Below, piece by piece: positions 1 through 61,107 of a stretch of 64,000 nucleotides of DNA. Each line of letters begins with the position of its first letter. Within the stretch, counting starts at the first letter, position 1. Source of the DNA: Pseudogymnoascus verrucosus (lineage: Eukaryota); NCBI GenBank assembly GCA_001662655.1, contig KV460212.1; one strand, given 5' to 3'. Below the pieces are notes generated by a model. It made no database searches. It saw only the letters and a list, made by a program, of their open reading frames with translations, and was not told the origin of the DNA. Made by a program: the position numbers and the translations under genes.

Positions 1-1
1 C

Positions 2-193
2 ACGTCGATGGAGCATGTGGAGTCCAAGGAGACAGATTGGGCGAATCGTAGACCGCTGGAGGTGTTCTGGGCGGATATTGAGCCGGTTGTTGATACGCTG
101 AGTGGGAGGCCTGAGATCCCGAGGCCGGAGCCGGATGTGAAGGGGCAGAGGGCGAAGGATATTAAGAGAGGGCTTGTGAGAGGCCCTGTATAG
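2..193 (+). CDS. 3' end of a gene starting before the window; hypothetical protein, possibly paralogous to the downstream 1240-3819 gene
   Basis: Open frame from the window edge to TAG at 191-193, with the G-rich 3' coding composition typical of genes here. TDWANRRPLEVFWADIEP resembles NDWARTRFLNFFLADVPD in the next gene. Confidence 0.5.
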   Translation, partial: TSMEHVESKETDWANRRPLEVFWADIEPVVDTLSGRPEIPRPEPDVKGQRAKDIKRGLVRGPV

Positions 194-1239: not shown

Positions 1240-3819
1240 ATGGCTGCCATCCCGATAAGCCCTCCTCCATATGCCGAAAAAAGCCCCAGAACACCGCGGA
1301 AATCCAATACGAATCCCCTCGGAATTCTCAACTTTGGGACCCCAGGGAATACACCGAGGAAAATAACGAAACAACGCTCTCGACATGACACTCCAGGCTC
1401 GGTGGCCAATAAGGCATACTTCAGCGCTAGTCCTGATGTCGTAAAGGAATTCTTGGTATGCCTAGCAAAAGGATGGGCCCCTGAGCACACAAGTGGAGAT
1501 AGGCACCTTTGTGGAGTGTATGCTCTGCACCAATCCTTCCGAAGCATGATGGGCGGGACCCAAGCCTTGCGGGGATTCGGATTCAAGGCCTTGAAGGATG
1601 AAATCGGTAGCGAGAGGTTCAAGACATTTCACAGAAACGCCATAAGAAGCCGGATGGAAAAGTTCGGCTTTCAAGGGGCTGATTTGGATGAAGCGGTGAA
1701 ACAAGCAATAGACCAAGCAGGTTTTGGGAACAACGACTTCTATAGTGTCGAGGAATTGTCAGAGTTTGTTCGATATATCAACAGGATGTATAACGTTCAA
1801 TATCGGCTTGGAATCGTCTCAAAGTTTGACAAGCGGATACCATCGGCTTACATTGTCGAAGGCGACGACCCCCTCAACCAGCTACATTACCGAGTTATTT
1901 GGCTCTATAATATCGATAACAATCATTGGGAAAGCTTCGGCCCAAAGTCTAGCGAGGATGGCCGGAAAGCTCGACGCAAATGGAGGCTTCTAGAAAACTT
2001 AGAGACGGTGGTGAATAACGGCCTCTATAGAGTCACGGTTGCCACGGAAGGAGTCCCGGCCGAGTATACCCTGACAACCCTTATTGACCAGTGGGTGTTT
2101 CAAGTGGCACCCCCAGAGGGCCTCGAGCCAAGAGAGGGCCTCATTTATGTCCACACCACCAAGGGCCCCAATTCGGACAGCTGGCGCGTCGTCGGCGAGT
2201 CGTCCATGGAGACGATTCGCCATCAAGAAGGATTCATACCTTTAGCCAACCTCGAAGTAGTCAACACCTACATAATTCCTCATGATCGAAGAGGGATGGT
2301 GGAGAAATCCAGGAAACCTACAAATATTTTAGACCAGCGAACGGGAAAGCGAAAGCGGACGCCACCACCCCCGGAACAGCCACCTGCCCCAGGCGGGACT
2401 TCCGGTGCCGCTCCTGGTGCTACTGGGGGATGCACTACAATCGGGGCTACCACAGAAGGTCAGGAACAGCCTGGTCAGGAGCAGCCTGGTCAGGAGCCAA
2501 TACCAACGGGGTTGCCTGGTCGCGTTACGGGCCCTCAGAACGATCTGCCGATAACCCCCGGGAATGACGGCCCAACTGTCAGAGGGCCAGTCGAAACGCC
2601 TACCTGGATTGAAGGGCCACAGGCCAAACGGGTAGAACCTCGGATCCAGCTGCCACCAACCCCCGGGAGTAATGGCATAACTTTCAGAGGGCCGCAGACC
2701 AACCAGCCAGGGGGCCTAATTATCCAGATTCCGGAGCCAGTGATTGTACAGCCAATCCCGCCGCCTGACCCGCGCCCAAAGGTAATAGGCCCCAACACGC
2801 CCCTCACAATCTCGACATTTGTCAACCGCCGAGCATTCGCCCCCCGCCCCCGCCCCGACTCGACACGCGGCCCATCCCTCGGTGCGCACCCCCGCCTCCC
2901 CCCCGGCCGCCCCAAGAGCAGAACAATGGCCGAGTTCACGGCAACGCGCAACCTGAAGAACGACTGGGCGCGTACGCGCTTCCTGAACTTCTTCCTAGCC
3001 GACGTCCCCGACACCGACGCAGACGGGAAGCGCTTCAGCCCCAATCACGACCAGCCATACCACCAGGACCAGGTCCTGCTCGCCCTCGACGAGACCTATG
3101 AGCCTGGTATCCCAGGGCCTGTGCGCGTGCGCACCTTCGATGAAGATGAGGGGTGGGCGCACTCAGCGAACTTGCGGAAAATCACGGATCCATTCGGCCT
3201 CGATCTCAATAGCGCTACCACGCAGTATAGTATGGACCCCAACGAGGCCTTCCGCGAGGACCTGTACCCGACGGCCTTCTTGAGGGGTCTATGCCAGGGC
3301 TCGCGCATCGATCCGAATGGAAGCAGACAGGAGATCATGGCGGGGCTGGCGGCGCACCGGATGGAGCTGGGGGTGCCGCTTATCTTGTACCGCCTCGTTG
3401 AGGCGGTGGGCGTCTTCTTCAAGGACGACTTGGTGCGTGTTCCCGGCGATCCGCTGGCGAATCCAGACGAGAAATTCCGGGCGTTTGGGCTGGAGCCGCA
3501 TAAGCGTGGATATGTGAGGGGACGAGATCTAGTAGCGGAGCCGAGGTCATGGGGTGCGCGGGTGAGGCCTCATGTGCATGGGTTGACTGCGCCGTTCGAT
3601 GTGAAGTGGGCGCTGCCGCCAGGGAATGTTAAGGATTTGGTGCCGCTGGGGTCGAAGTTGTCGTTGCATGGGTTGAACACGCCGCCGAGGGAGGAGAATG
3701 GTGAGGTGGAGGTTGGGGGAACGGGTTTTGCGCCTGCGGGGCCGGTGGTGCCTTCGCGACGCCCAGGGCAGGTTTATATGACAAAGGATGGAAGACCGAG
3801 TTTTTTCACTCCCGAGTGA
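1240..3819 (+). CDS. Large hypothetical protein (~860 aa): putative OTU-like cysteine protease domain, SH3-like segments, Pro-rich linker and SAP-like motif
   Basis: Uninterrupted 2.6-kb ORF (track 1210-3819; first ATG 1240, preceded by a TTTTTTGCAG acceptor-like site). Motifs: TSGDRHLCGVYAL, IWLYNIDNNHWESF, EGFIPLANLEVV, EGWAHSANLRKI, RGYVRGRDL, YPTAFLRGLCQGSRIDPNGSRQEIMAGL. Coding status is well supported; domain calls are by eye. Confidence 0.75.
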   Translation: MAAIPISPPPYAEKSPRTPRKSNTNPLGILNFGTPGNTPRKITKQRSRHDTPGSVANKAYFSASPDVVKEFLVCLAKGWAPEHTSGDRHLCGVYALHQSFRSMMGGTQALRGFGFKALKDEIGSERFKTFHRNAIRSRMEKFGFQGADLDEAVKQAIDQAGFGNNDFYSVEELSEFVRYINRMYNVQYRLGIVSKFDKRIPSAYIVEGDDPLNQLHYRVIWLYNIDNNHWESFGPKSSEDGRKARRKWRLLENLETVVNNGLYRVTVATEGVPAEYTLTTLIDQWVFQVAPPEGLEPREGLIYVHTTKGPNSDSWRVVGESSMETIRHQEGFIPLANLEVVNTYIIPHDRRGMVEKSRKPTNILDQRTGKRKRTPPPPEQPPAPGGTSGAAPGATGGCTTIGATTEGQEQPGQEQPGQEPIPTGLPGRVTGPQNDLPITPGNDGPTVRGPVETPTWIEGPQAKRVEPRIQLPPTPGSNGITFRGPQTNQPGGLIIQIPEPVIVQPIPPPDPRPKVIGPNTPLTISTFVNRRAFAPRPRPDSTRGPSLGAHPRLPPGRPKSRTMAEFTATRNLKNDWARTRFLNFFLADVPDTDADGKRFSPNHDQPYHQDQVLLALDETYEPGIPGPVRVRTFDEDEGWAHSANLRKITDPFGLDLNSATTQYSMDPNEAFREDLYPTAFLRGLCQGSRIDPNGSRQEIMAGLAAHRMELGVPLILYRLVEAVGVFFKDDLVRVPGDPLANPDEKFRAFGLEPHKRGYVRGRDLVAEPRSWGARVRPHVHGLTAPFDVKWALPPGNVKDLVPLGSKLSLHGLNTPPREENGEVEVGGTGFAPAGPVVPSRRPGQVYMTKDGRPSFFTPE
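2458..2499 (+). repeat. 15-bp coding tandem repeat (GQEQP x~3)
   Basis: ggtcaggaacagcct ggtcaggagcagcct ggtcaggagcca. Confidence 0.8.
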
Positions 3820-4190: not shown

Positions 4191-5958
4191 CTAAACTCCC
4201 TGGTCCCACGAGGTCTTCCCCGTCGTGAGCGTGCTGCAACTACTACGGCCCTTCATTTCCAAGCTCGCAGCCCTATCAGCAGGGCTAGTTTCCGTAACCC
4301 ACGACTTCTCCACGCGGATCACGTTGTCTGCCGCCGTCAACCCGTCGCCGCCTTGGCTGTGGAGCTCGAACCTGTTACTGGTATGCCGCATTTTGCTGGC
4401 GAGCTTCACATTTATCGATTTGGCCCAGCCGGGTGTGGTGGGGGTGCGTGTTGCTTCACTCATTTCAGTGGAGGGGAACGATTTGGGGATGATCTTTACT
4501 ATCAGGGGGCGGAGGCATATGAGACTCGAGCAGATGACTGCGGTGAATGATTCGAGGATACTCCATATAACAGGGTCGACGTTGGCATCTGTCCGGAATT
4601 AGCAACACAACTACATTGGCATTGTGGGGGCGGGCAGTCAACATACAAGTCAAATCGATAGTCGTGCCATACGAGACAATATATTTGAGACGAATAATGG
4701 AAGTGATGGAAGCGCTACATTTTTCACGTCAGCAAAGATACCGCGAAGACCAGATGGAGTGTACTTACAAAGACCCAATGGCGAACATGAAGACCAAAAC
4801 CAGCCTCTTCTTCAGACTCAGTGTCAATCCATTCAACTCGTAAACTGGGAGGAACATGATAACGATGTCCTCGAAAATGCTCACTGCAGCACCCGAATAC
4901 ACGAATGCCTGCTGATCCGCGCATTTTCCAACTACCGACTGGTCCCACGAGACTGCAACGGGTATGCACTGGAAGACAACGACGCAGACGAAAATAATGG
5001 TGCGGCAAGCCATCCACACAAGTGATATGTGGATGATACGGCGAAACTGTCTGTCAGGGAAAATCCGAAGGTATAAAAAGAGAATAGAGACCTTTGCCAG
5101 GCCTTGTACAAGAAGATAGAAAATTTGGGAAATGTAGTAGAGCTATGCTGATAAGCTGGTGAATGTAAAAGGGGCGGGGGAAGAATTGTACCTTCCTAAG
5201 TATTATGACATTTTTGGGGTCAACGTCCCAGAAGTGCCTTCCGAAGCCGAGTGTAGCATCTAAAGTCATTAGTTTCAACGTGGAACTGGTATGCATCAAG
5301 GAGGGTCATACTGTAAATTGGAATAACAACCATTGGAATCATCAGGATCTGTCCAAGATCGTTAATAAAGGTATCAGTAGATTGGATTTCGGGTCTTCTT
5401 ACAGCTGCAACCACAACTGCCCAATCGTCTAACCATAATCTGTTTGATACAAGGCTCCTGGAGACAAATCTCAGGGCAATAATAGGAAAGGTTATTGCGG
5501 AGATTATGATAACGTCTCGTATAATCTCCGCACTCCGTGAAGGTTGTGGGATATCGTAGCATATTCCATTTTGGAGAATGAGTGTCGCGGCTGTATAAAT
5601 CAGCGTCAAGCCATAGTCAAGGAAAAGACTCGAAGTGAAGTGCTGGGAGTATATACCGGCTTGGTCTTCAACTTTGCATGTTTCCACAACGCAGACTGAT
5701 ACTTGTAATTGCAAGTCCTCATTCGAACAAAAGCAATTTCTAACGTCAAGCAGCTCGCACCCGGCTGCCTTTAGCGTTGTCACACTACATTTTTGCTGGG
5801 GAAGGTGTTAATAAGTTCTCAGGCCGAGTTACAAACAGATATCTTACAGCACATGGCGGCACCTTCGTGAATGCCTCTACTAATCGGTTGGTCTCGGATT
5901 CTGCGAGGGCGACATTGAGCAAAGACGCTATAGATACGAGGATGCCCAGGATGCGCAT
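4191..5958 (-). CDS. CFEM-domain PTH11-like integral membrane protein (fungal rhodopsin-domain GPCR), multi-exon
   Basis: Signal peptide MRILGILVSIASLL. Eight-Cys CFEM pattern PPCA/QKC...GCELLDVRNCFC...C...C...C across introns. PTH11 hallmarks LRFVSR, LWLDDW, GFGRHFWD, FQCIPV..SWD, SIFEDIVIMFLP, LSLKKRLVL..MFAIG. Last exon ends WDQGV*. Confidence 0.88.
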
Positions 5959-19364: not shown

Positions 19365-19581
19365 TCGAGTCGCTTCCCTGTAAGCCTCGTTTTTGAAATT
19401 CCACCTCTAAAAACCCCAGCTTATAACCACCCCTTTCTCTTCTCCCTCGCGCCCCCAAGGCTGTGCACAGCATCCGTATTCTTATATTTAATTACCCCCC
19501 AGACACGATGCTACAACCTTCGGCAGCTAGTATACTTTTTTTTTCATTTCATCAAGTCTCCGATCGTCTTTGTCGCCAACC

Positions 19582-20586
19582 ATGACTAAACTTCTCATCA
19601 TTTTGTCACTATTTACATACACGGTCTCAGGTGCTCCTGATCATTTCAGGCTGTGGTTTCCTCAATATGGCCCAACATTTGAAGGTTATGTGAGGTCATG
19701 CAAAGAAACATATGACGCCTACAGAGAGGATAAACCTTGTCGCCCGGTAAATTATGTAGGGTGCCAATCTGGAAGAATGATCCATTGTCTCCTAAGCCAA
19801 GCCACCGAGTCTTTGAAAGCAAACATGGCGTCGGCTGGCGTTATTTTAGGGCTCCTCCCCACTACACTGTGTCTAGTCGGGTTGAGCACCGTTGAGACTG
19901 GTCTTTTAGCCTATCGGCGGCCTTTATTATCGCTGCTCCTAGCTTCTGGAGCACCGGCAATTTCTCCAAGCCGAATTTTTGACTATCGAGACTCAATAGA
20001 GCTACTCCGAAATAGGTCTACCTACATCAATACACCTAAATTTACACCAACGTGGGCGGCAATAATAGTCACCCTCCAGTACATACTCGCATCCGTTGCA
20101 ATTGCCAACTTAGCGCACGTTAGCTGGGAACTGTGTATCAAGACAGTTTGCAGTTTCTCTTCGGACACAGCGTTCCAACCCGCACTCTGGGCGTTTGTAG
20201 CTATACCCATCCATCTAATGGGACGACTTGCAGTGGCACTCCGTTTCCGTTGCGAAATATCGGAGTTAGAACCTGGAGAGCGTTCATGGGCAAGGAGGCT
20301 TCGAGAGGAGTTTCAGCTGACTGCAAGACACTCGCCTGCCACACTTCACACTAAACAGGAAGCGTATTCGTTTATATTTTGCTCCTGGTGCACATCAACT
20401 GGGGCAGTCTTGCACATCATGTACGGCACACTTGTTTTCTCAAGCATTTTGTTCATTAGTGCACAGGACGCAATAAAGGTAGCGGCGAGGTATCTATGCT
20501 CTACTCTTATCTGCAGGATCATTCTTAAGTTCGAAATTATAGGGATGCGTGGTGTGATGGAGATTGAGAAAGAATCTAAAGAATAG
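19582..20586 (+). CDS. Conserved fungal hypothetical membrane protein with signal peptide
   Basis: Single ORF: MTKLLIILSLFTYTVSG signal peptide, Cys-containing luminal N-region, KANMASAGVILGLLPT, RRPLLSLLLASGAP, about five hydrophobic helices, YGTLVFSSILFI. Confidence 0.8.
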   Translation: MTKLLIILSLFTYTVSGAPDHFRLWFPQYGPTFEGYVRSCKETYDAYREDKPCRPVNYVGCQSGRMIHCLLSQATESLKANMASAGVILGLLPTTLCLVGLSTVETGLLAYRRPLLSLLLASGAPAISPSRIFDYRDSIELLRNRSTYINTPKFTPTWAAIIVTLQYILASVAIANLAHVSWELCIKTVCSFSSDTAFQPALWAFVAIPIHLMGRLAVALRFRCEISELEPGERSWARRLREEFQLTARHSPATLHTKQEAYSFIFCSWCTSTGAVLHIMYGTLVFSSILFISAQDAIKVAARYLCSTLICRIILKFEIIGMRGVMEIEKESKE

Positions 20587-24637: not shown

Positions 24638-26498
24638 ATGGGGAACACGGAGGAGCTTGACCTCGTAGTCATTGGCGCCGGTGAGTTAACCCCCAAAATG
24701 CCGTGCATGAGCACCACCACTGAACCCATCCAGGCTCCTATGGCCTCGCAGCCGCAAAAACATTCCTGGAGGTGAACCCTTCGGCCAGCATCGCCATCCT
24801 AGACTCCGAGGAGACGATTGGAGGAGTATGGGCGGAGCGGAAGCTGTATCCCGGTCTGAAGACCAATAATATGCTCGGGACCTACGAGTTTAGTGATTTG
24901 CCTATGGACACTGCGACGTATGGTATTAAGGCTGGGGAGCACATCAGCGGTGAAGTGGTTCATCGTTACCTCAAGGACTATGCGCGGAAATTCGGCATCT
25001 ACTCTAAGATCCGGTTTCAGACTAAGGTTCTTTCTGCTGAGCAGGCTGGCGGCGAGGGGTGGTTACTCACTGTTACGAAGGGATTTAGTGATAAGGATGC
25101 CCTGAAGACGAGCGAGGTGCTGGCGAAGAAGCTTATTGTAGCCACGGGCGTGACTTCGGATCCGTTTCTGCCTAGGTTTAGTGGTTCAGAATCGTTTGGG
25201 GCTCCTCTGTTCCATACTGGCGATTTCAAGGAGCATGCGGGGACGCTGGAATCAGCGAAGACTGTTGCGGTTTTCGGTGGCACAAAGTCGGCTTGGGATG
25301 CTGTCTATGCCTATGCAACGAGGGGGGTCAAAGTCGAGTGGATTATACGTGGTATGTAAGCCCCAGAATCCAAGTCAAGTGCAAGCATTAAACATCTTCA
25401 GAATCCGGCCACGGCCCGACTTGGATGGCTCCACCATATGTGACACCCTTGAAGAGATGGCTAGAGAAACTCGTACACACTCGCTTCATCACCTGGCTCA
25501 GCCCCTGCATCTGGGGTAACTTCGACGGCTACTCTCGCGTCCGATCTTTCCTCCACGGCACCGCAATAGGACGCACTCTCGTGAACACCTTCTGGGGCAT
25601 CCTAGGCAACGACGTGAAGACGCTGAACAAATACAGTTCGCACCCCGAGCTAGCAAAACTCGAGCCCTGGAACGACGCATTCTTCGTCGGCGCCTCAGGT
25701 ATCTCAATCCTCAATTACGACACTGATTTCTTTGAACTCGTACGCAACGGCACAGTGTCCGTCCACATCGCTGATATCGAGGGGTTGGCTCCTAAAACGG
25801 TCTTACTTACTAAAGGCGAAAGACTGAAAGTCGACGCTATGGTCTGCGCAACAGGGTGGAAACACCGCGTGGCTCTCGATTTCCTCCCAAAAGATCTCGA
25901 TCTCGGACTTCCCCACCACACCACCTCCGCACCCAACGCGCACACCAAACAAGCCAACGAAGAAATCCTCTCCCGCTTCCCCAGACTCAAGCAGCGCCCT
26001 GCTGCACGCCCGAAATACGTCCCCCTGACAGAGAACAAGGGAATCAGCGACGAAGACCTCGCGCCCCCTGAGGAGACATTCGAGCCCTTCCAGCACTACC
26101 GCTTCATGGTTCCTCCGTCGACGATTCGCGATCGGAACATCGCATTCACTGGATTCCAGCTGACTATCAGTACCACGATTATGGCGCAGGCGCAGGCGCT
26201 GTGGATCGCGGCGTACTTCTCGGACAAGGCTGGTGCGGTTGCCATTCCTGCTGATGAGGAGGAGGTCAGGTATGAGGCGGTGCTGCATAATCGGTTTGGG
26301 CGATGGAGGTATCCGGAGGGGTTTGGGGTTATTCCGGATTTTGCGTTTGATGCGGTGCCGTATTTGGATATGCTGTTGACTGATCTGGGGTTGGATTGTC
26401 ATAGGAAGAGGGGGTTGTTGAGGGATATGTTTAGTCCGTATGGGCCGGAGGATTATAAGGGTCTTGTGGGGGAGTGGGTGTCGAGGGTGAAGAGGTAG
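24638..26498 (+). CDS. Flavin-containing monooxygenase (FMO-like, class B)
   Basis: VVIGA/GSYGL FAD motif split by intron 24681-24733; GGVW...YPGLKTNN; IVATG; FGAPLFHTGDF; VFGGTKSAWD; VCATGW. Second intron 25352-25401. Confidence 0.9.
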
Positions 26499-54901: not shown

Positions 54902-56544
54902 CTACTCAGCCGCCTTCAGCACCTCTCGAATAACACTCGTATCCTTCTCAACATCCATCTCCCACCCCGAAACCGCAACCCGCACTGCCGGCCTCCCCTC
55001 CCAACTGGTCCCACTAACATAAATCCGATTCTGGTCGTTAATCCGTCCCAGGAGCTCCTCATTCCTCCCCTGGTCTCTCAGGCGGAAGAGCACGATAGTA
55101 CCCACCTCCGCCACCTCCGCAGTAGGAAGTAACTCATACGCCTCCAGTTCCTTCACCATACTCGCCACCGCCCTCGCGAGACGCACCTGCGTTGCAAACA
55201 ACAGAGCCAGACCCTCACGTCCATGCGCGTGCAGCACAGCATAGATAGGCAGAGCGCTGAAGCGGCGCGAGTTCTCCAAGCCGTGGTTTAGGGGAGAGGG
55301 GATGGGGTCTGTAGCGGACGTCTTGAGGTAGGCTGCTGCGCCGTTGTTGCAGACGTTGTTCAGATCGGTTTCGGTGCGGGTGAGGAGGATGGCGGATGCG
55401 TATGGCTTCGTGGGTTAGCAGGGTATATGCATAGAATGGGGGATAGGTACTGTGTTGAGTGCTTTGTGACAGTCAGCGGTTATGGAGTCGGCGTATTGCA
55501 ACCCTTCGGATGATGCGCGAAGGGAGGCGAACTCTTCTGTTTCGGGGAGGGAACGAGCGAATATCCCGAATGCTGTGATCGTCAGTTTCCAGTCACCAAT
55601 TGGCAAAGAAAGCATGCAACACCCAGCGAACGCAGACACCGAAGATAAAGCCTGTACATACCACCATCAACATGAATCCAAGCCCTCCCCTTCGCAACCT
55701 CCTCCAAACACCCCTTTAACCCCTTCATCTCCTCCTCCCCCCCAAAATACCTCCCCGTATTCACCTCTCCCATCCCCACAACCACAACACTCACCCACCC
55801 CTCCCTCCCCGCCTCCCTCCCCGCCTCCCTCCTCACCTTCTCCAAATCCAGCCTCCACGGCTCCCCCTCAACCCCGACATCCCTCACATTCCCCCGCCCC
55901 AGCCCTAACACCCCGGCAGCTTTGTACACACTACTATGCGCCGCCGCACCGAGGATCTGCACCCCTTTCACCCCGGCTTGCACACACGCTCCTACGATCC
56001 CCGCACTCGCTACTGTCTCCGCGCTTCCGCTAGCCTTGAGTCGACGATCGAGAAGGGCGTCCCGCGCCGTCGCCATGGCGAGGATGTTACTCCCCGTCGC
56101 GCCTGGCGTGATGGCGCGTCCACCCCATACCTCGGGAGACAGGCGCAGCAGCTCAGTCAGCATGGTCAGCGTGTGCGCTTCGATAGTTGTGGCGAGGGAG
56201 GCGCCGCGGTCGTGGACGGCGACGTTGCAATCTAGGGCTGTAGCGAGGTTGTCTGCTGCGGCAGCGATGGGGAGGGTGGAGCCGGTGACGAAGGCGTAGA
56301 AGGCGGGGGTGAGTAGGGGGGATGAGAAGGCGGGGGGGAGGGTGAGGAGGTGGGACAGGGTCGTGGGGGGGTGGCCGGTGGGGGGGAGGTGGGAGAGGAG
56401 GGTTGGGGTGAGGGTCGTGAGGGTCGTGGGGGTGGGGAAGGGGAGGGGGGGGCGGGCAGAGAGGGAGGTGCTGATGAGGGTTGCGACTGTGGTGCGGTCG
56501 AGGGGGGGGGTGGTGAATGTTGAATTGGGGGTTGGGGAGGACAT
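54902..56544 (-). CDS. PLP-dependent group II amino acid decarboxylase-like protein, multi-exon
   Basis: FYAFVTGS; TPGATGSNILA; AHSSVYKAAGVLG; GEVNTG; WIHVDG/AFG; ADSITADCHKALN (PLP Lys); GLENSRRFSALP; IVLFR; YVSGTSW. Confidence 0.88.
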
Positions 56545-56814
56545 GATGGCGGCGGTGTGGGTGGCGGCGTGTAGGTTAGGCGGGGTTGCTTCAAATGGTT
56601 GTCAATGGATGGACGAGGTTGTCGATATTATAGTTCTTGATTATTAGGCGGTATCTTGATCTTCAAAGTCTTCGAGTTTTATAGAAGGGGGGGGTTATAA
56701 GGAGGGACCGGAATTTACAAGTGACTCAAGCTCACGAAGGAGCATGACAACCCCGCTACTGTGATCCTTTAGTGGGGTACGACCCCTGACAACTCTAGTC
56801 CACGCTAGAATATA

Positions 56815-57831: not shown

Positions 57832-60800
57832 ATGTCCGGCGCTGAGGCTGCGTTCGTTGTTGGCCTCATTTCAGGCCTGATCTCGATCATCGAGGCAACT
57901 AAAACGATATATGATGCCGCTAAAGACGCGAAGGGTCAGCCCGAGGCATTTCGCCTGGTGCATGCACGACTAGTCCTAGTGATCGCAATCCTGGACAGAG
58001 CTAGAGAGAGGGCACAGATGGTCGACGAGACGACGCAGGAGACATTGGAACCCATTCTGGAATCATGCAAGGCGAAGGCTGAGAACCTCAACAAAATATT
58101 CAAGAAGGTTATTCGGAAGGATGACGACAAGTGGTACGATCGATACAAGAAAGCCCTCGGTACGCTAAGGAAAGAGTATAAAGTGGAGTGTTTAATGGAA
58201 GAGATATTGAAGGACATCCAAGTGCTTGTATGCGAGAGGCTGATGGGAACCGCTACTGATGCCCAAGTAAAGGAGATACAAGAGGCTATTAAGGAAATGA
58301 ACGAAATGCCTTCTTCTCTCCAGGACGAGGCTGGGAGTGTCACCCAAAACCATCAAGGCACTGGTAACAATAATGCTAACACTGGTAGAGGAGCCCAGCA
58401 TAATGGAATTGGGGATCTCTATCACAATGAGATCAAGGGTGACGCGCATTTTGGCAGTAAGAAATAGTATAATCCGAGACCATGTCTAGATTTGATAAAT
58501 ATGACTTAGGCAACCCCACTTTCAATAATTATGCCGCTCCTAGTGAGTTGCAAAGGGTCCAACCTAACAAGCTAGCGGGTGCTAACGACGGCCCCACCAT
58601 AGAGCGACCAGAGACCCCACCGAACCCGTCGGTCGTCATACCCTTCAGTCGCGACACAGATTTTGTCGAGCGAGGGACAATACTTGATCAGATCTACCAG
58701 AAATGCGATGTATTGGGGTCTCGGACCGCACTCGTTGGCCTGGGCGGCGTCGGGTAAGTACAAACACTTCTGCCATTGCGGGTGGCTAACGGCCGCGAAG
58801 CAAGTCGCAACTCGCCATCGAATATGCCTACCGAACCCGAGACCGATCGCTTGAAACGTGGGTTTTCTGGGTCCATGCAAGCAACACGGCTCGGTTTGAG
58901 CAGAGCTTTCGGGATATTGCAAACTGCGTCAAGATCTCCGGCCGGCAAGATCCAAAGGCCAATATATTCCAACTTGTGCACGACTGGCTGCACAACGATA
59001 GGAAAGGGCCGTGGGTCATTATACTTGATAATGTGGATGATGCTAGCTACCTCGTTGAGCGTCGAAGCACCGGTCAGGATGTGCAAAATAACGGCATAGG
59101 CAGTGGGAACTTACGACCGCTCGTGGAATATCTTCCGCAGTGCCCAAATGGATCGATTCTTATAACAACAAGAAGCAAAACTGCAGCGCTAAAGCTAGTT
59201 AAACCGCGGAACATAATCGCAATCGAACCAATGAGCCAGATAGATGCGCTAGCACTCTTTAGGAATAAGCTTGGCGGGAATGATGGTGGACATGACGCTA
59301 GCCAGCTTGTTGCAGAGCTCGAGTTTATGCCGCTTGCTATTGTTCAAGCAGCTGCATACATCTCCGAATTAGCGCCCCGATGTTCTATACGACAGTACCT
59401 TCAAATGTTTCAAAAGAGCGACAGCAAAAGATCGAGTCTCTTAGAGTACGAAGCCGAAGAGCTACAGCGAGACTCAGAGGCCAAAAACTCCATCATCATT
59501 ACATGGCAAATATCGTTCGATCATATCTGTGAGATTAGGCCGTCAGCCACTGATTTGTTGTCTCTTATGTGTTTTTTTGACCGACAAGGAATTCCTGAGG
59601 CTCTACTTCGAAGTCAAAGCGTGCAGAGCAACTCGGTGCAAGACCAGAACGAGAGCGACGGTGATAAACATGTTAATAGCGATACTAATTATGACGATGA
59701 CGGTAACGATGAAGATGACGATGAAGATAACCTAACACAGTCTAGTGTGAGTGATGGGTTTGAAAGCGATGTCGCAGTATTACGAAACTACTCGTTCGTC
59801 TCTGTCAATGCAGACGGCATAACCTTCGAAATGCACAGGCTGGTGCAGTTAGCCACGCGAAAATGGCTTGAAGCCCATGGGCAGCAAAAGAGGTGGGAAC
59901 AGCAGTTTATCAGGAATCTTAACGCGGAGCTTCCGACTGGAGAGTACGAGAATTGGGTGAGGTGTCAGACGTATTCCCCGCACGTGCAAATAGCGGCAGC
60001 ACAGAAGCCAAAGGAACAAGCCTCTTTAAGAGACTGGGCTTCGATACTATTCAAGGCAGCATGGTATGCGTGCAGAATGGAGAAAGGAATAGAGGCAGAG
60101 AAGATGTCTATTGAGGCAATGAAAGTTCGACAGAGGATTCTGAATCGAGAGCACAATGATACGCTAGAAAGTATGGCAATGGTAGGCTTAGCGTATAAGA
60201 TTAGGGGCCGATGGGATGCTGCGGAAGAGCTAGAGGTGCAAGTGATGGAGATGATGAAGGAGAAACTCGGCGAGGATCATCCACACACGCTACAGAGCAT
60301 GGGCAACCTAGCATTGACGTACGGGAATCAAGGGAAGTGGGACGCTGCGGAAGAGCTAGAGGTGCAGGTGATGGAGATGATGAAGGAGAAACTTGGCGAG
60401 GATCATCCAGACACGCTGACTAGCATGTGCAACCTAGCATTGACGTACGGGAAGCAAGGGAAGTTGGACGCTGCAGAAGAGCTAGGGGTGCAAGTGATGG
60501 AGATGATGAAGGAGAAACTCGGCGAGGATCATCCACACACGCTATGGAGCATAGGCAACCTAGCATTGACGTACGGGAAGCAAGGGAAGTTGGACGCTGC
60601 AGAAGAGCTAGGGGTGCAAGTGATGGAGATGATGAAGGAGAAACTCGGCGAGGATCATCCAGACACGCTATGGAGCATAGGCAACCTAGCATTGACGTAC
60701 GGGAATCAAGGGAAGTGGGACGCTGCGGAAGAGCTAGAGGTGCAAGTGATGGAGATGATGNNNNNNNNNNNNNNNNNNNNNNNNNNNNNNNNNNNNNNNN

Positions 60801-61107
60801 NNNNNNNNNNNNNNNNNNNNNNNNNNNNNNNNNNNNNNNNNNNNNNNNNNNNNAGATGATGAAGGAGAAACTCGGTAAGGATCATCCAGACACGCTGACT
60901 AGCATGAACAATCTAGCATTCACGTTGAAAAAAACTGGCAGAGGAACTGAAGCTGCAAGACTTATGGAAGAATGCATGCAATCAAGGAAACGTATATTAG
61001 GACTTGATCACCCAGATACCCTATCATCTTGCACATCTCTGGCTGCATGGAAGGCAGAGCAAGAGGATGTTGTATTGTCAGTCTCAGTGTTGCCAATAGT
61101 ATATTAG
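57832..61107 (+). CDS. Fungal NLR: SesA (HeLo-like) domain - sigma-like amyloid motif - NB-ARC - high-identity TPR array
   Basis: SesA start MSGAEAAFVVGLISGLISIIEATKTIYDAAKDAKG; N/G/Q-rich motif at 58339-58455; predicted introns 58457-58509, 58543-58602 and 58754-58800. P-loop GLGGVG/KSQLA, Walker B WVIILDNVDD, ILITTR, MPLAIVQAAAYI, MHRLVQ, then LGEDHPxTL..MxNLA TPRs. Assembly gap lies inside the repeats. Confidence 0.88.
60251..60920 (+). repeat. 126-bp (42-aa) TPR tandem repeats, near-identical, interrupted by a gap
   Basis: Units start at 60251, 60377, 60503, 60629 and 60755 (exact 126 spacing); the last unit resumes at about 60856. Confidence 0.95.
60761..60853. other. Assembly gap (93 N)
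   Basis: N run. Both flanks contain the same AGATGATG repeat position, consistent with collapsed repeats. Confidence 0.98.

Follow-up and report, generated by a model that had tools for sequence, protein, structure and literature searches.

The first few kilobases of a 64,000-nucleotide stretch of contig KV460212.1 of the fungus Pseudogymnoascus verrucosus (assembly GCA_001662655.1; the whole stretch is hereafter called the window) carry an uninterrupted open reading frame (ORF), the product of which, P0001, matches no OTU protease family in Pfam. The locus raises the question of whether this protein is a protease and, if so, what it cleaves and where its catalytic domain comes from. An initial annotation, made from the sequence alone, described P0001 as a lineage-specific orphan with an OTU-like protease, three SH3-like domains and a SAP-like motif. 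Every motif quoted there is present in the translation, in which the order of domains is an OTU-fold cysteine protease, a first SH3 (SH3a), a proline-rich linker, a second SH3 (SH3b), SAP and a third SH3 (SH3c), and P0001 is colinear with nine homologues.

In this study, the predicted structure, the sequence family and the viral relatives of P0001 were analyzed. The protease domain belongs to a previously undescribed fungal subfamily that is undetected by Pfam, and the closest relatives found are the C-terminal domains of betachrysovirus capsid proteins, a link that the initial annotation missed and that is new here. The reading that we favour, at somewhat better than even odds, is that P0001 is a catalytically active cysteine isopeptidase with an OTU fold, most probably a deubiquitinase, which is fused to SH3 and SAP modules and the protease domain of which has been exchanged with mycoviruses. 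No paper describing the fungal architecture, or the link between fungal and betachrysovirus OTU domains, was found in a literature search that had most subscription journals outside its reach.

The protease domain and its family

A model of residues 62–254 was obtained with a predicted local distance difference test (pLDDT) score of 90.1 and a predicted template-modelling (pTM) score of 0.87, in which the cysteine lies at the start of a helix and the histidine on the last strand. All 34 matches shown by Foldseek for this model are OTU domains, six of them at E ≤ 0.001. In a structure search of 48,161 chains, the first 32 places are taken by OTU or OTU-like entries, including five without telling titles that we take to be OTUs, and the best is OTUD1 (Z-score 9.3, root-mean-square deviation 3.8, 131 aligned residues). 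The OTU-type papain fold that was proposed initially is therefore borne out, whereas the likeness to Josephin that was proposed with it is not, Josephin ranking only 35th (Z-score 4.8, deviation 4.9, 122 aligned). As modelled, the domain has the OTU fold and the OTU-type catalytic order.

The catalytic residues are conserved in a 42-row alignment, the rows of which are 17–80% identical to P0001 and include cluster mates and fragments. Among the rows covering each position, Cys91 is found in all 41, Thr84 in all 40, His229 and Trp230 each in all 37 and Glu231 in 32 of the 37. The cysteine and the histidine, which are 138 residues apart, are thus invariant, a pattern beyond chance. The usual order of catalytic residues in OTUs is C...H-aromatic-D/N/E (PMC7396840), which the order C...H-W-E of P0001 fits. 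When the alignment with OTUD3 is counted back from its end, His229 falls on residue 182, which is directly preceded by the His loop R178-Y-G-E of OTUD3 (PMC3705208). OTU deubiquitinases also have an aromatic residue upstream of this loop (PMC3705208); at residue 223, upstream of the loop in the present family, His is found in 19, Tyr in ten and Trp in six of 38 rows, with the register set by sequence offset. The secondary structure and the end-offsets of the alignments would be compatible with a catalytic pairing of the cysteine and the histidine. The model of full-length P0001 has a mean pLDDT of 38 and is useful for residues 88–341 only.

P0001 is not an orphan. A word search gave nine homologues at 47–74% identity, seven of them from named Pseudogymnoascus, and a profile of residues 58–345 gave 29 proteins at E ≤ 0.001 among 1.84 billion representatives. 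Names were looked up for 20 of the 27 new profile matches, and the named clusters are from Cadophora gregata, Stipitochalara longipes and Phlyctema vagabunda (Helotiales), Phialocephala subalpina (presumably also Helotiales) and Candelina (Candelariomycetes), Pseudogymnoascus itself belonging to the Thelebolales. The restriction to one lineage therefore stands, as the named members are Leotiomycetes together with a single Candelina fusion. Full-length members align across the protease, SH3, SH3, SAP and SH3 regions. No OTU family of Pfam (PF02338 or Peptidase_C65) was matched by P0001 or its pieces at E ≤ 10, by ten close members or, at E ≤ 1, by 27 distant members; a genome search with PF02338 gave three other, ordinary OTU genes, P0001 not being among them. 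A Pfam match of P0001 to Apyrase, below the cut-off, was treated as chance. Scans of metagenomes and viral contigs with the fungal alignments revealed no relative.

Several members of the family have peculiarities of their own. P0033 has a canonical SH3 (Pfam SH3_9, E = 3e-10) at residues 160–203, inserted within the helical lobe of the OTU domain, and in P0013 (1295 residues) the SH3–SAP–SH3 block seems, by eye, to occur twice. In Cadophora gregata the gene is split in one annotation (P0018 and P0041, neighbouring models of 163 and 473 residues) and is a single 651-residue protein (P0042) in another, which points to either a strain lesion or an annotation error. The Atlas of protein clusters gave nothing usable for the whole of P0001. 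For the OTU domain it gave, as a lead only, one cluster with an OTU on 19% of its members (score 0.90), as well as bacterial clusters (YccE or hypothetical, with no common Pfam family) with scores of 0.90–0.91, which are possibly unrecognised OTU-like proteins.

Relationship to betachrysovirus capsid proteins

In a library of predicted viral structures the top three matches are chrysovirus 'putative coat proteins' (E = 4e-7, 1.3e-6 and 1.1e-5; 14–22% identity), and alphachrysovirus proteases appear at E of about 1e-2. Viral segments were gathered with two kinds of probe that are independent of the OTU domain, a 5' motif from the literature and peptides of the capsid N-terminus. All four capsid ORFs found in this way (L065, L084, L088 and L096) end in an OTU domain, and among 907 ORFs the fungal profile scored L065, L084 and L088 at 39–50 bits, the next ORF reaching 10.9 bits. 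A search with the viral OTU domain gave 20 capsid-type proteins, seven of which are named as chrysovirus capsid or ORF2. The cysteine and the His-Trp pair are kept in all 20, and their scores on the fungal profile are 17.6–60.7 bits, compared with at most 5.5 bits among 120 controls with reversed or shuffled sequences; since these 20 were chosen by the OTU domain, they do not place it in every betachrysovirus.

The relationship does not depend on the closest fungal sequences, as a profile of 16 distant fungal members alone scored the viral domains at 11.6–39.8 bits. Comparison of the fungal with the betachrysovirus profile gave a probability of 99.7% (E = 1e-25, 128 columns; 99.1% in a second comparison). 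Searched against the whole 30-Mb genome, the capsid protein P0052 matched the P0001 gene alone (E = 0.008), despite the three ordinary OTU genes. Furthermore, P0001 and the betachrysovirus capsids have in common one residue more between the Gly and the Cys of the Cys loop than the alphachrysovirus motif. On this evidence from profiles and models, the P0001 protease and the C-terminal domain (about 130 residues) of betachrysovirus capsids are of the same OTU subtype.

OTU motifs are reported to be absent from betachrysoviruses (PMC10861612), and PMC5917037 describes none in the virus studied or its relatives but cites previous work in which one such virus had two partial motifs. P0051, the named coat protein of the species with these partial motifs, scores 55 bits on the fungal profile. 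The present results place an intact OTU active site on capsids that were described as lacking such motifs (PMC10861612, PMC5917037). The ORF3 capsid protein of MoCV1 sheds about 200 C-terminal residues (PMC6315753); by analogy with the capsids compared here, the lost piece may hold the OTU domain. Two further observations were made on the viral sequences. L096:234-2711 (+) and P0051 have a tandem duplication of about 50 residues in the helical part of the capsid OTU domain, with the cysteine and histidine intact, which is either natural or a cloning artefact. An OTU motif of the alphachrysovirus type lies in frame in many long viral ORFs (L013-L054) and in two giant-virus-type contigs.

Because capsids and a fungal protein share one OTU subtype, the domain has likely moved between double-stranded RNA mycoviruses and fungal genomes. 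We give a transfer from virus to host about an even chance. Capture in the opposite direction, in which the subfamily is fungal in origin and an ancestral betachrysovirus acquired the protease domain alone onto its capsid gene, is plausible at roughly one chance in three, and a third source of the domain is unlikely. Trees were calculated from 51 rows without an outgroup (P0051 being omitted owing to its internal duplication) and from 44 rows including seven alphachrysovirus P4 rows (14 near-duplicates being dropped), and three alignments gave conflicting placements of viruses and fungi. In both in-register alignments the fungal rows form one clade (support 100/100 and 99), whereas the one tree that places the viruses inside the fungal set, beside the Candelina protein, has its outgroup out of register. 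Approximately unbiased (AU) tests reject neither the grouping of viruses with Candelina (p = 0.46) nor viral monophyly (1.5 log-likelihood units above the free tree; p = 0.55), so the support of 100/100 is no proof that the fungal clade is nested inside the viruses.

Capture by the virus is also favoured by single viral domains, which score best against the fungal proteins P0014, P0038 and P0048, and by the alphachrysovirus P4 and betachrysovirus capsid proteins, between which no homology was detected outside the OTU domain (probability 0.3%, from shallow alignments), so that nothing outside the domain speaks for its inheritance within the viruses. It is opposed by an insertion of about five residues before the YRLG strand, which by eye is present in every fungal row including Candelina and is lacking in both alphachrysoviruses and betachrysoviruses. 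The chain of profile similarities likewise speaks against capture (fungal–beta 99.7, beta–alpha 95.2, alpha–other viral 99.2 and fungal–other viral 67.6), the rows of the alpha and 'other viral' profiles having been picked by one shared motif. Comparison with ordinary cellular OTUs, for which one of the three genomic genes served as a single sequence, gave nothing and is too weak to count.

Accessory modules and organization of the locus

The three SH3 folds and the SAP motif of the initial annotation are supported by structure or profile comparison. SH3a superposes on the SH3 domain of STAC3 with a Z-score of 7.9 and a deviation of 1.9 over 57 residues, and all 50 matches shown in the structure search are SH3-containing chains aligned across the SH3a stretch. 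A match of the same stretch to an ice-binding protein in a PDB sequence search (E = 0.0097) was rejected because the stretch folds as an SH3. Profiles were compared with those of 11 canonical SH3s from the genome (17 loci tried) and of three of the five genomic SAP loci. The probability against the canonical SH3s is 94% for SH3b, 56% for SH3c and 42% for SH3a, that between SH3b and SH3c is 96%, and that of the SAP segment against the three genomic SAP domains is 89%, mismatched controls remaining below 0.4%. From this sequence likeness SH3c is probably a duplicate of SH3b. PDB matches of SH3b are weak (p47phox and other SH3s, best E = 0.046). P0001 itself has no Pfam SAP match, and P0012 matches SAP (PF02037) at E = 2e-4 with 21.3 bits, below the curated cut-off of 23.9 bits. 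The features of the locus are given in Table 1.

Table 1. Features of the P0001 locus, with positions in the window
Feature	Position	Strand	Basis or remark
Single-exon ORF of P0001	1240..3819	+	859 aa, one copy per 30-Mb genome (whole-genome search)
OTU-fold cysteine protease domain, aa 62-254	1423..2001	+	Confident model; fold searches; profile comparisons
Cys loop and start of catalytic helix, with Cys91 codon at 1510-1512	1489..1527	+	Conservation of Thr84 and Cys91
His strand H229-W230-E231, with His229 codon at 1924-1926	1897..1938	+	Conservation of His, Trp and Glu
SH3a, aa 260-341, with degenerate PxxP groove	2017..2262	+	Structure match to STAC3 SH3
Pro-rich linker, aa 344-577, probably disordered	2269..2970	+	Low pLDDT; 27-56% identity among orthologues
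KRKR basic cluster inside linker	2347-2358	+	Translation
SH3b, aa 580-648, non-canonical	2977..3183	+	Profile comparison; weak PDB matches
SAP-like helix-loop-helix, aa 673-709	3256..3366	+	Profile comparison; Pfam SAP below cut-off in P0012
SH3c, aa 714-767, non-canonical, probably duplicate of SH3b	3379..3540	+	Profile comparison; no confident model
Phosphofructokinase gene, 3' end	1..192	+	Neighbour; likewise in P. destructans
CFEM and fungal rhodopsin-domain (Pth11-like) receptor gene, several exons	4191..5807	-	Neighbour

The orthologue in P. destructans, VC83_04906, adjoins VC83_04905, which is annotated as 6-phosphofructokinase, in the same order as here. Med17 and cyclin genes also lie near the locus, and no mobile-element gene was seen beside P0001. 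At its C-terminus (window 3800-3819) P0001 stops about 45–50 residues before most orthologues and without their C-terminal basic cluster; P0005 ends at the same point. Elsewhere in the window, an ORF at 58790-60859 (+) with DUF7779 and TPR repeats resembles a fungal NLR-type gene and adjoins a stretch of lower G+C content at 60–64 kb, and open frames of more than 300 codons at 19531-20586 (+), 25392-26498 (+) and 55582-56601 (-) have no Pfam match at E ≤ 0.001.

Function, rival readings and known systems

In the mechanism that we propose, Cys91 would attack the scissile bond, His229 would serve as the general base and Glu231 would orient His229. The three non-canonical SH3 barrels and the SAP motif would probably tether the enzyme to nuclear protein or nucleic-acid targets, with partners bound by SH3 surfaces outside the PxxP groove and nuclear targeting provided by SAP and the basic clusters. 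After its fusion in fungi the gene would have been retained at a fixed locus in Pseudogymnoascus, and it is present in Helotiales. The origin of the catalytic domain and its rapid change suggest a possible role in virus–host conflict.

Several observations weigh against this reading. The column in which the Trp that holds Gly-Gly would be expected (likely residue 168) contains Leu in 18, Phe in 12, Tyr in ten and Val in two of 42 rows, and no conserved basic residue was found behind the Cys loop at residues 115–120 in the 42-row family, the register of both being set by eye; in other OTUs this Trp secures the Gly-Gly of ubiquitin and the Cys loop is supported from behind by a basic residue (PMC7396840). 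All nine orthologues show lower conservation of the protease domain than of SH3a (50–80% compared with 57–87% identity), an unexpected pattern if the site binds a substrate that does not vary. At the position of the third catalytic residue, Ser is found in 18 of the 20 viral copies and Glu in the fungal proteins. In the full-length model, the sole one to hold them, SH3b, SAP and SH3c have pLDDT values below 50, and the nuclear location is based on SAP and on loose basic motifs that were counted without a control. With about 130 alignment columns, three topologies for the exchange are indistinguishable. Finally, VC83_04906 is missing from a P. destructans mycelial proteome table that holds both of its neighbours (PMC13208438 supplement), which suggests low or stage-limited expression; no mention of this locus tag was found in published paper texts.

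Neither these two positions nor the lower conservation of the domain is decisive against ubiquitin, because OTU enzymes of proven activity differ greatly in their S1 sites (PMC7396840), and specificity of the predicted activity for ubiquitin is somewhat more likely than not. A less probable but serious alternative is an active OTU-fold protease with another substrate, either a ubiquitin-like modifier (NEDD8, SUMO or Atg8) or a peptide bond, in which case the viral copy might shorten the capsid precursor of which it is part, and its fungal counterpart might process itself or a partner. The apparent replacement of the Gly-Gly Trp would agree with this, as would the position of the viral domain at the capsid C-terminus, where MoCV1 sheds its residues (PMC6315753), and the plant-virus OTU-like proteases that double as polyprotein proteases (PMC10318531). 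However, in addition to the variability of S1 sites in proven OTU deubiquitinases, the structural neighbours are almost without exception isopeptidases for ubiquitin or ISG15, and the processing of capsids has been ascribed to unknown host factors (PMC10861612).

A different role for the accessory modules was proposed in the initial annotation, namely that the SH3 domains regulate the protease by binding PxxP motifs in the linker of the same protein. P0001 does contain 16 PxxP motifs, two of class I and two of class II, but its SH3 domains have lost most of their proline-binding residues. The PxxP groove of SH3 domains is formed by five positions (the ALYDY tyrosines, the Trp of the groove, and a Pro and a Tyr on the last strand), which can be recognised in the canonical SH3s that the genome encodes. 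P0001 keeps one of the five in SH3a (only Pro334) and none in SH3b or SH3c, where the ALYDY register of SH3a and SH3c was set by eye. Across the family, Tyr occurs at either ALYDY position in none of 20, 18 and 15 rows of SH3a, SH3b and SH3c, respectively, and the groove Trp is kept in one, three and none of these rows; some trace of a groove persists in SH3a, with the Pro in eight of 20 rows and Tyr, Phe or His beside the Trp position in 13 of 20. The linker is 117–303 residues long in the seven closest rows but 10–51 residues in 11 distant members (four fragments that end earlier being omitted), and several distant members have zero to three PxxP motifs in the entire protein. Given the lost groove residues and the short distant linkers, intramolecular autoregulation is improbable as a mechanism of the family.

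Least probable of all is that P0001 is a relic, either inactive as an enzyme or no longer expressed, and has at best a scaffold role through its SH3 and SAP modules. The faster drift of the protease domain relative to the SH3s and the missing orthologue in the proteome table would be expected of a relic. Opposed to this are the Cys, His and Trp residues, which are invariant down to about 20% identity, and the reading frame, which is intact in homologues. At least 23 strain differences lie in the ORF; 14 of the 23 listed are synonymous, including all four in the protease domain, and no indel inside the ORF is among those listed, 28 further differences falling outside the listing.

The reading of P0001 as an active isopeptidase, if correct, adds a candidate deubiquitinase subfamily that is invisible to Pfam, and a transfer from virus to host, if true, would mean that an RNA-virus enzyme became a conserved host gene. 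The fullest form of this proposal is a tentative one. Leotiomycetes may have domesticated a deubiquitinase from a mycovirus capsid gene by joining it to a SAP motif and three repurposed SH3 barrels, the result being a nuclear enzyme retained in both Thelebolales and Helotiales, and the betachrysovirus capsid tail may be an active deubiquitinase, released from the capsid inside the cell, with a possible share in the effects of the virus on its host. Betachrysoviruses weaken several fungal hosts (PMC10194276).

Among known systems, Josephin (MJD) deubiquitinases have a papain-like fold and an LC..HAL-type box that is superficially similar to that of P0001, but differ in placing below 32 OTU-type entries in the structure search. 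The OTUs of the OTUD1/OTUD3/Otu2 type, wMelOTU and nairovirus vOTU (PF02338) share with P0001 the fold, the cysteine at the start of the core helix and the C...H-aromatic-acid order; P0001 differs from them in its 7–16% identity to known OTUs in the fold searches, the absence of a PF02338 match, a longer Cys loop, the apparent lack of the Gly-Gly Trp and other accessory domains. The Candelina amidoligase–OTU fusion (P0022 and P0043) is of the same fungal OTU subtype (E = 2e-7) and matches the P0001 gene at E = 2e-8, but its OTU sits behind an Amidoligase_2 domain and neither SH3 nor SAP was detected. The two Candelina proteins possibly represent a ligase-plus-isopeptidase pair in a single chain.

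The alphachrysovirus P4 protein, with the motif PGDG.CG.HA (PMC10861612, PMC5917037), also has a C-terminal OTU on a chrysovirus segment product and CG after the catalytic loop, and its profile matches that of the beta domain with a probability of 95%. On the fungal profile it scores no more than 9.3 bits, compared with 39–50 bits for beta capsids, and it has neither the additional residue in the Cys loop nor the HW pair. The C-terminal 130 or so residues of betachrysovirus capsids (P0051, P0052, P0058, P0059, P0060, P0064 and P0065) come closest to P0001, with which they share the Cys loop GW.P..TSG.G.LCG, a helix start of the form hydrophobic-(S/T)-V-(D/E)-(Q/E)-L, the YRLG strand, the His strand HW..GP and the lack of any Pfam match above the cut-off. 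The viral domain, which is joined to a capsid, is about 35 residues shorter and carries Ser at His+2, whereas in P0001 the helical arm is larger, the residue at His+2 is Glu and the SH3/SAP modules are attached.

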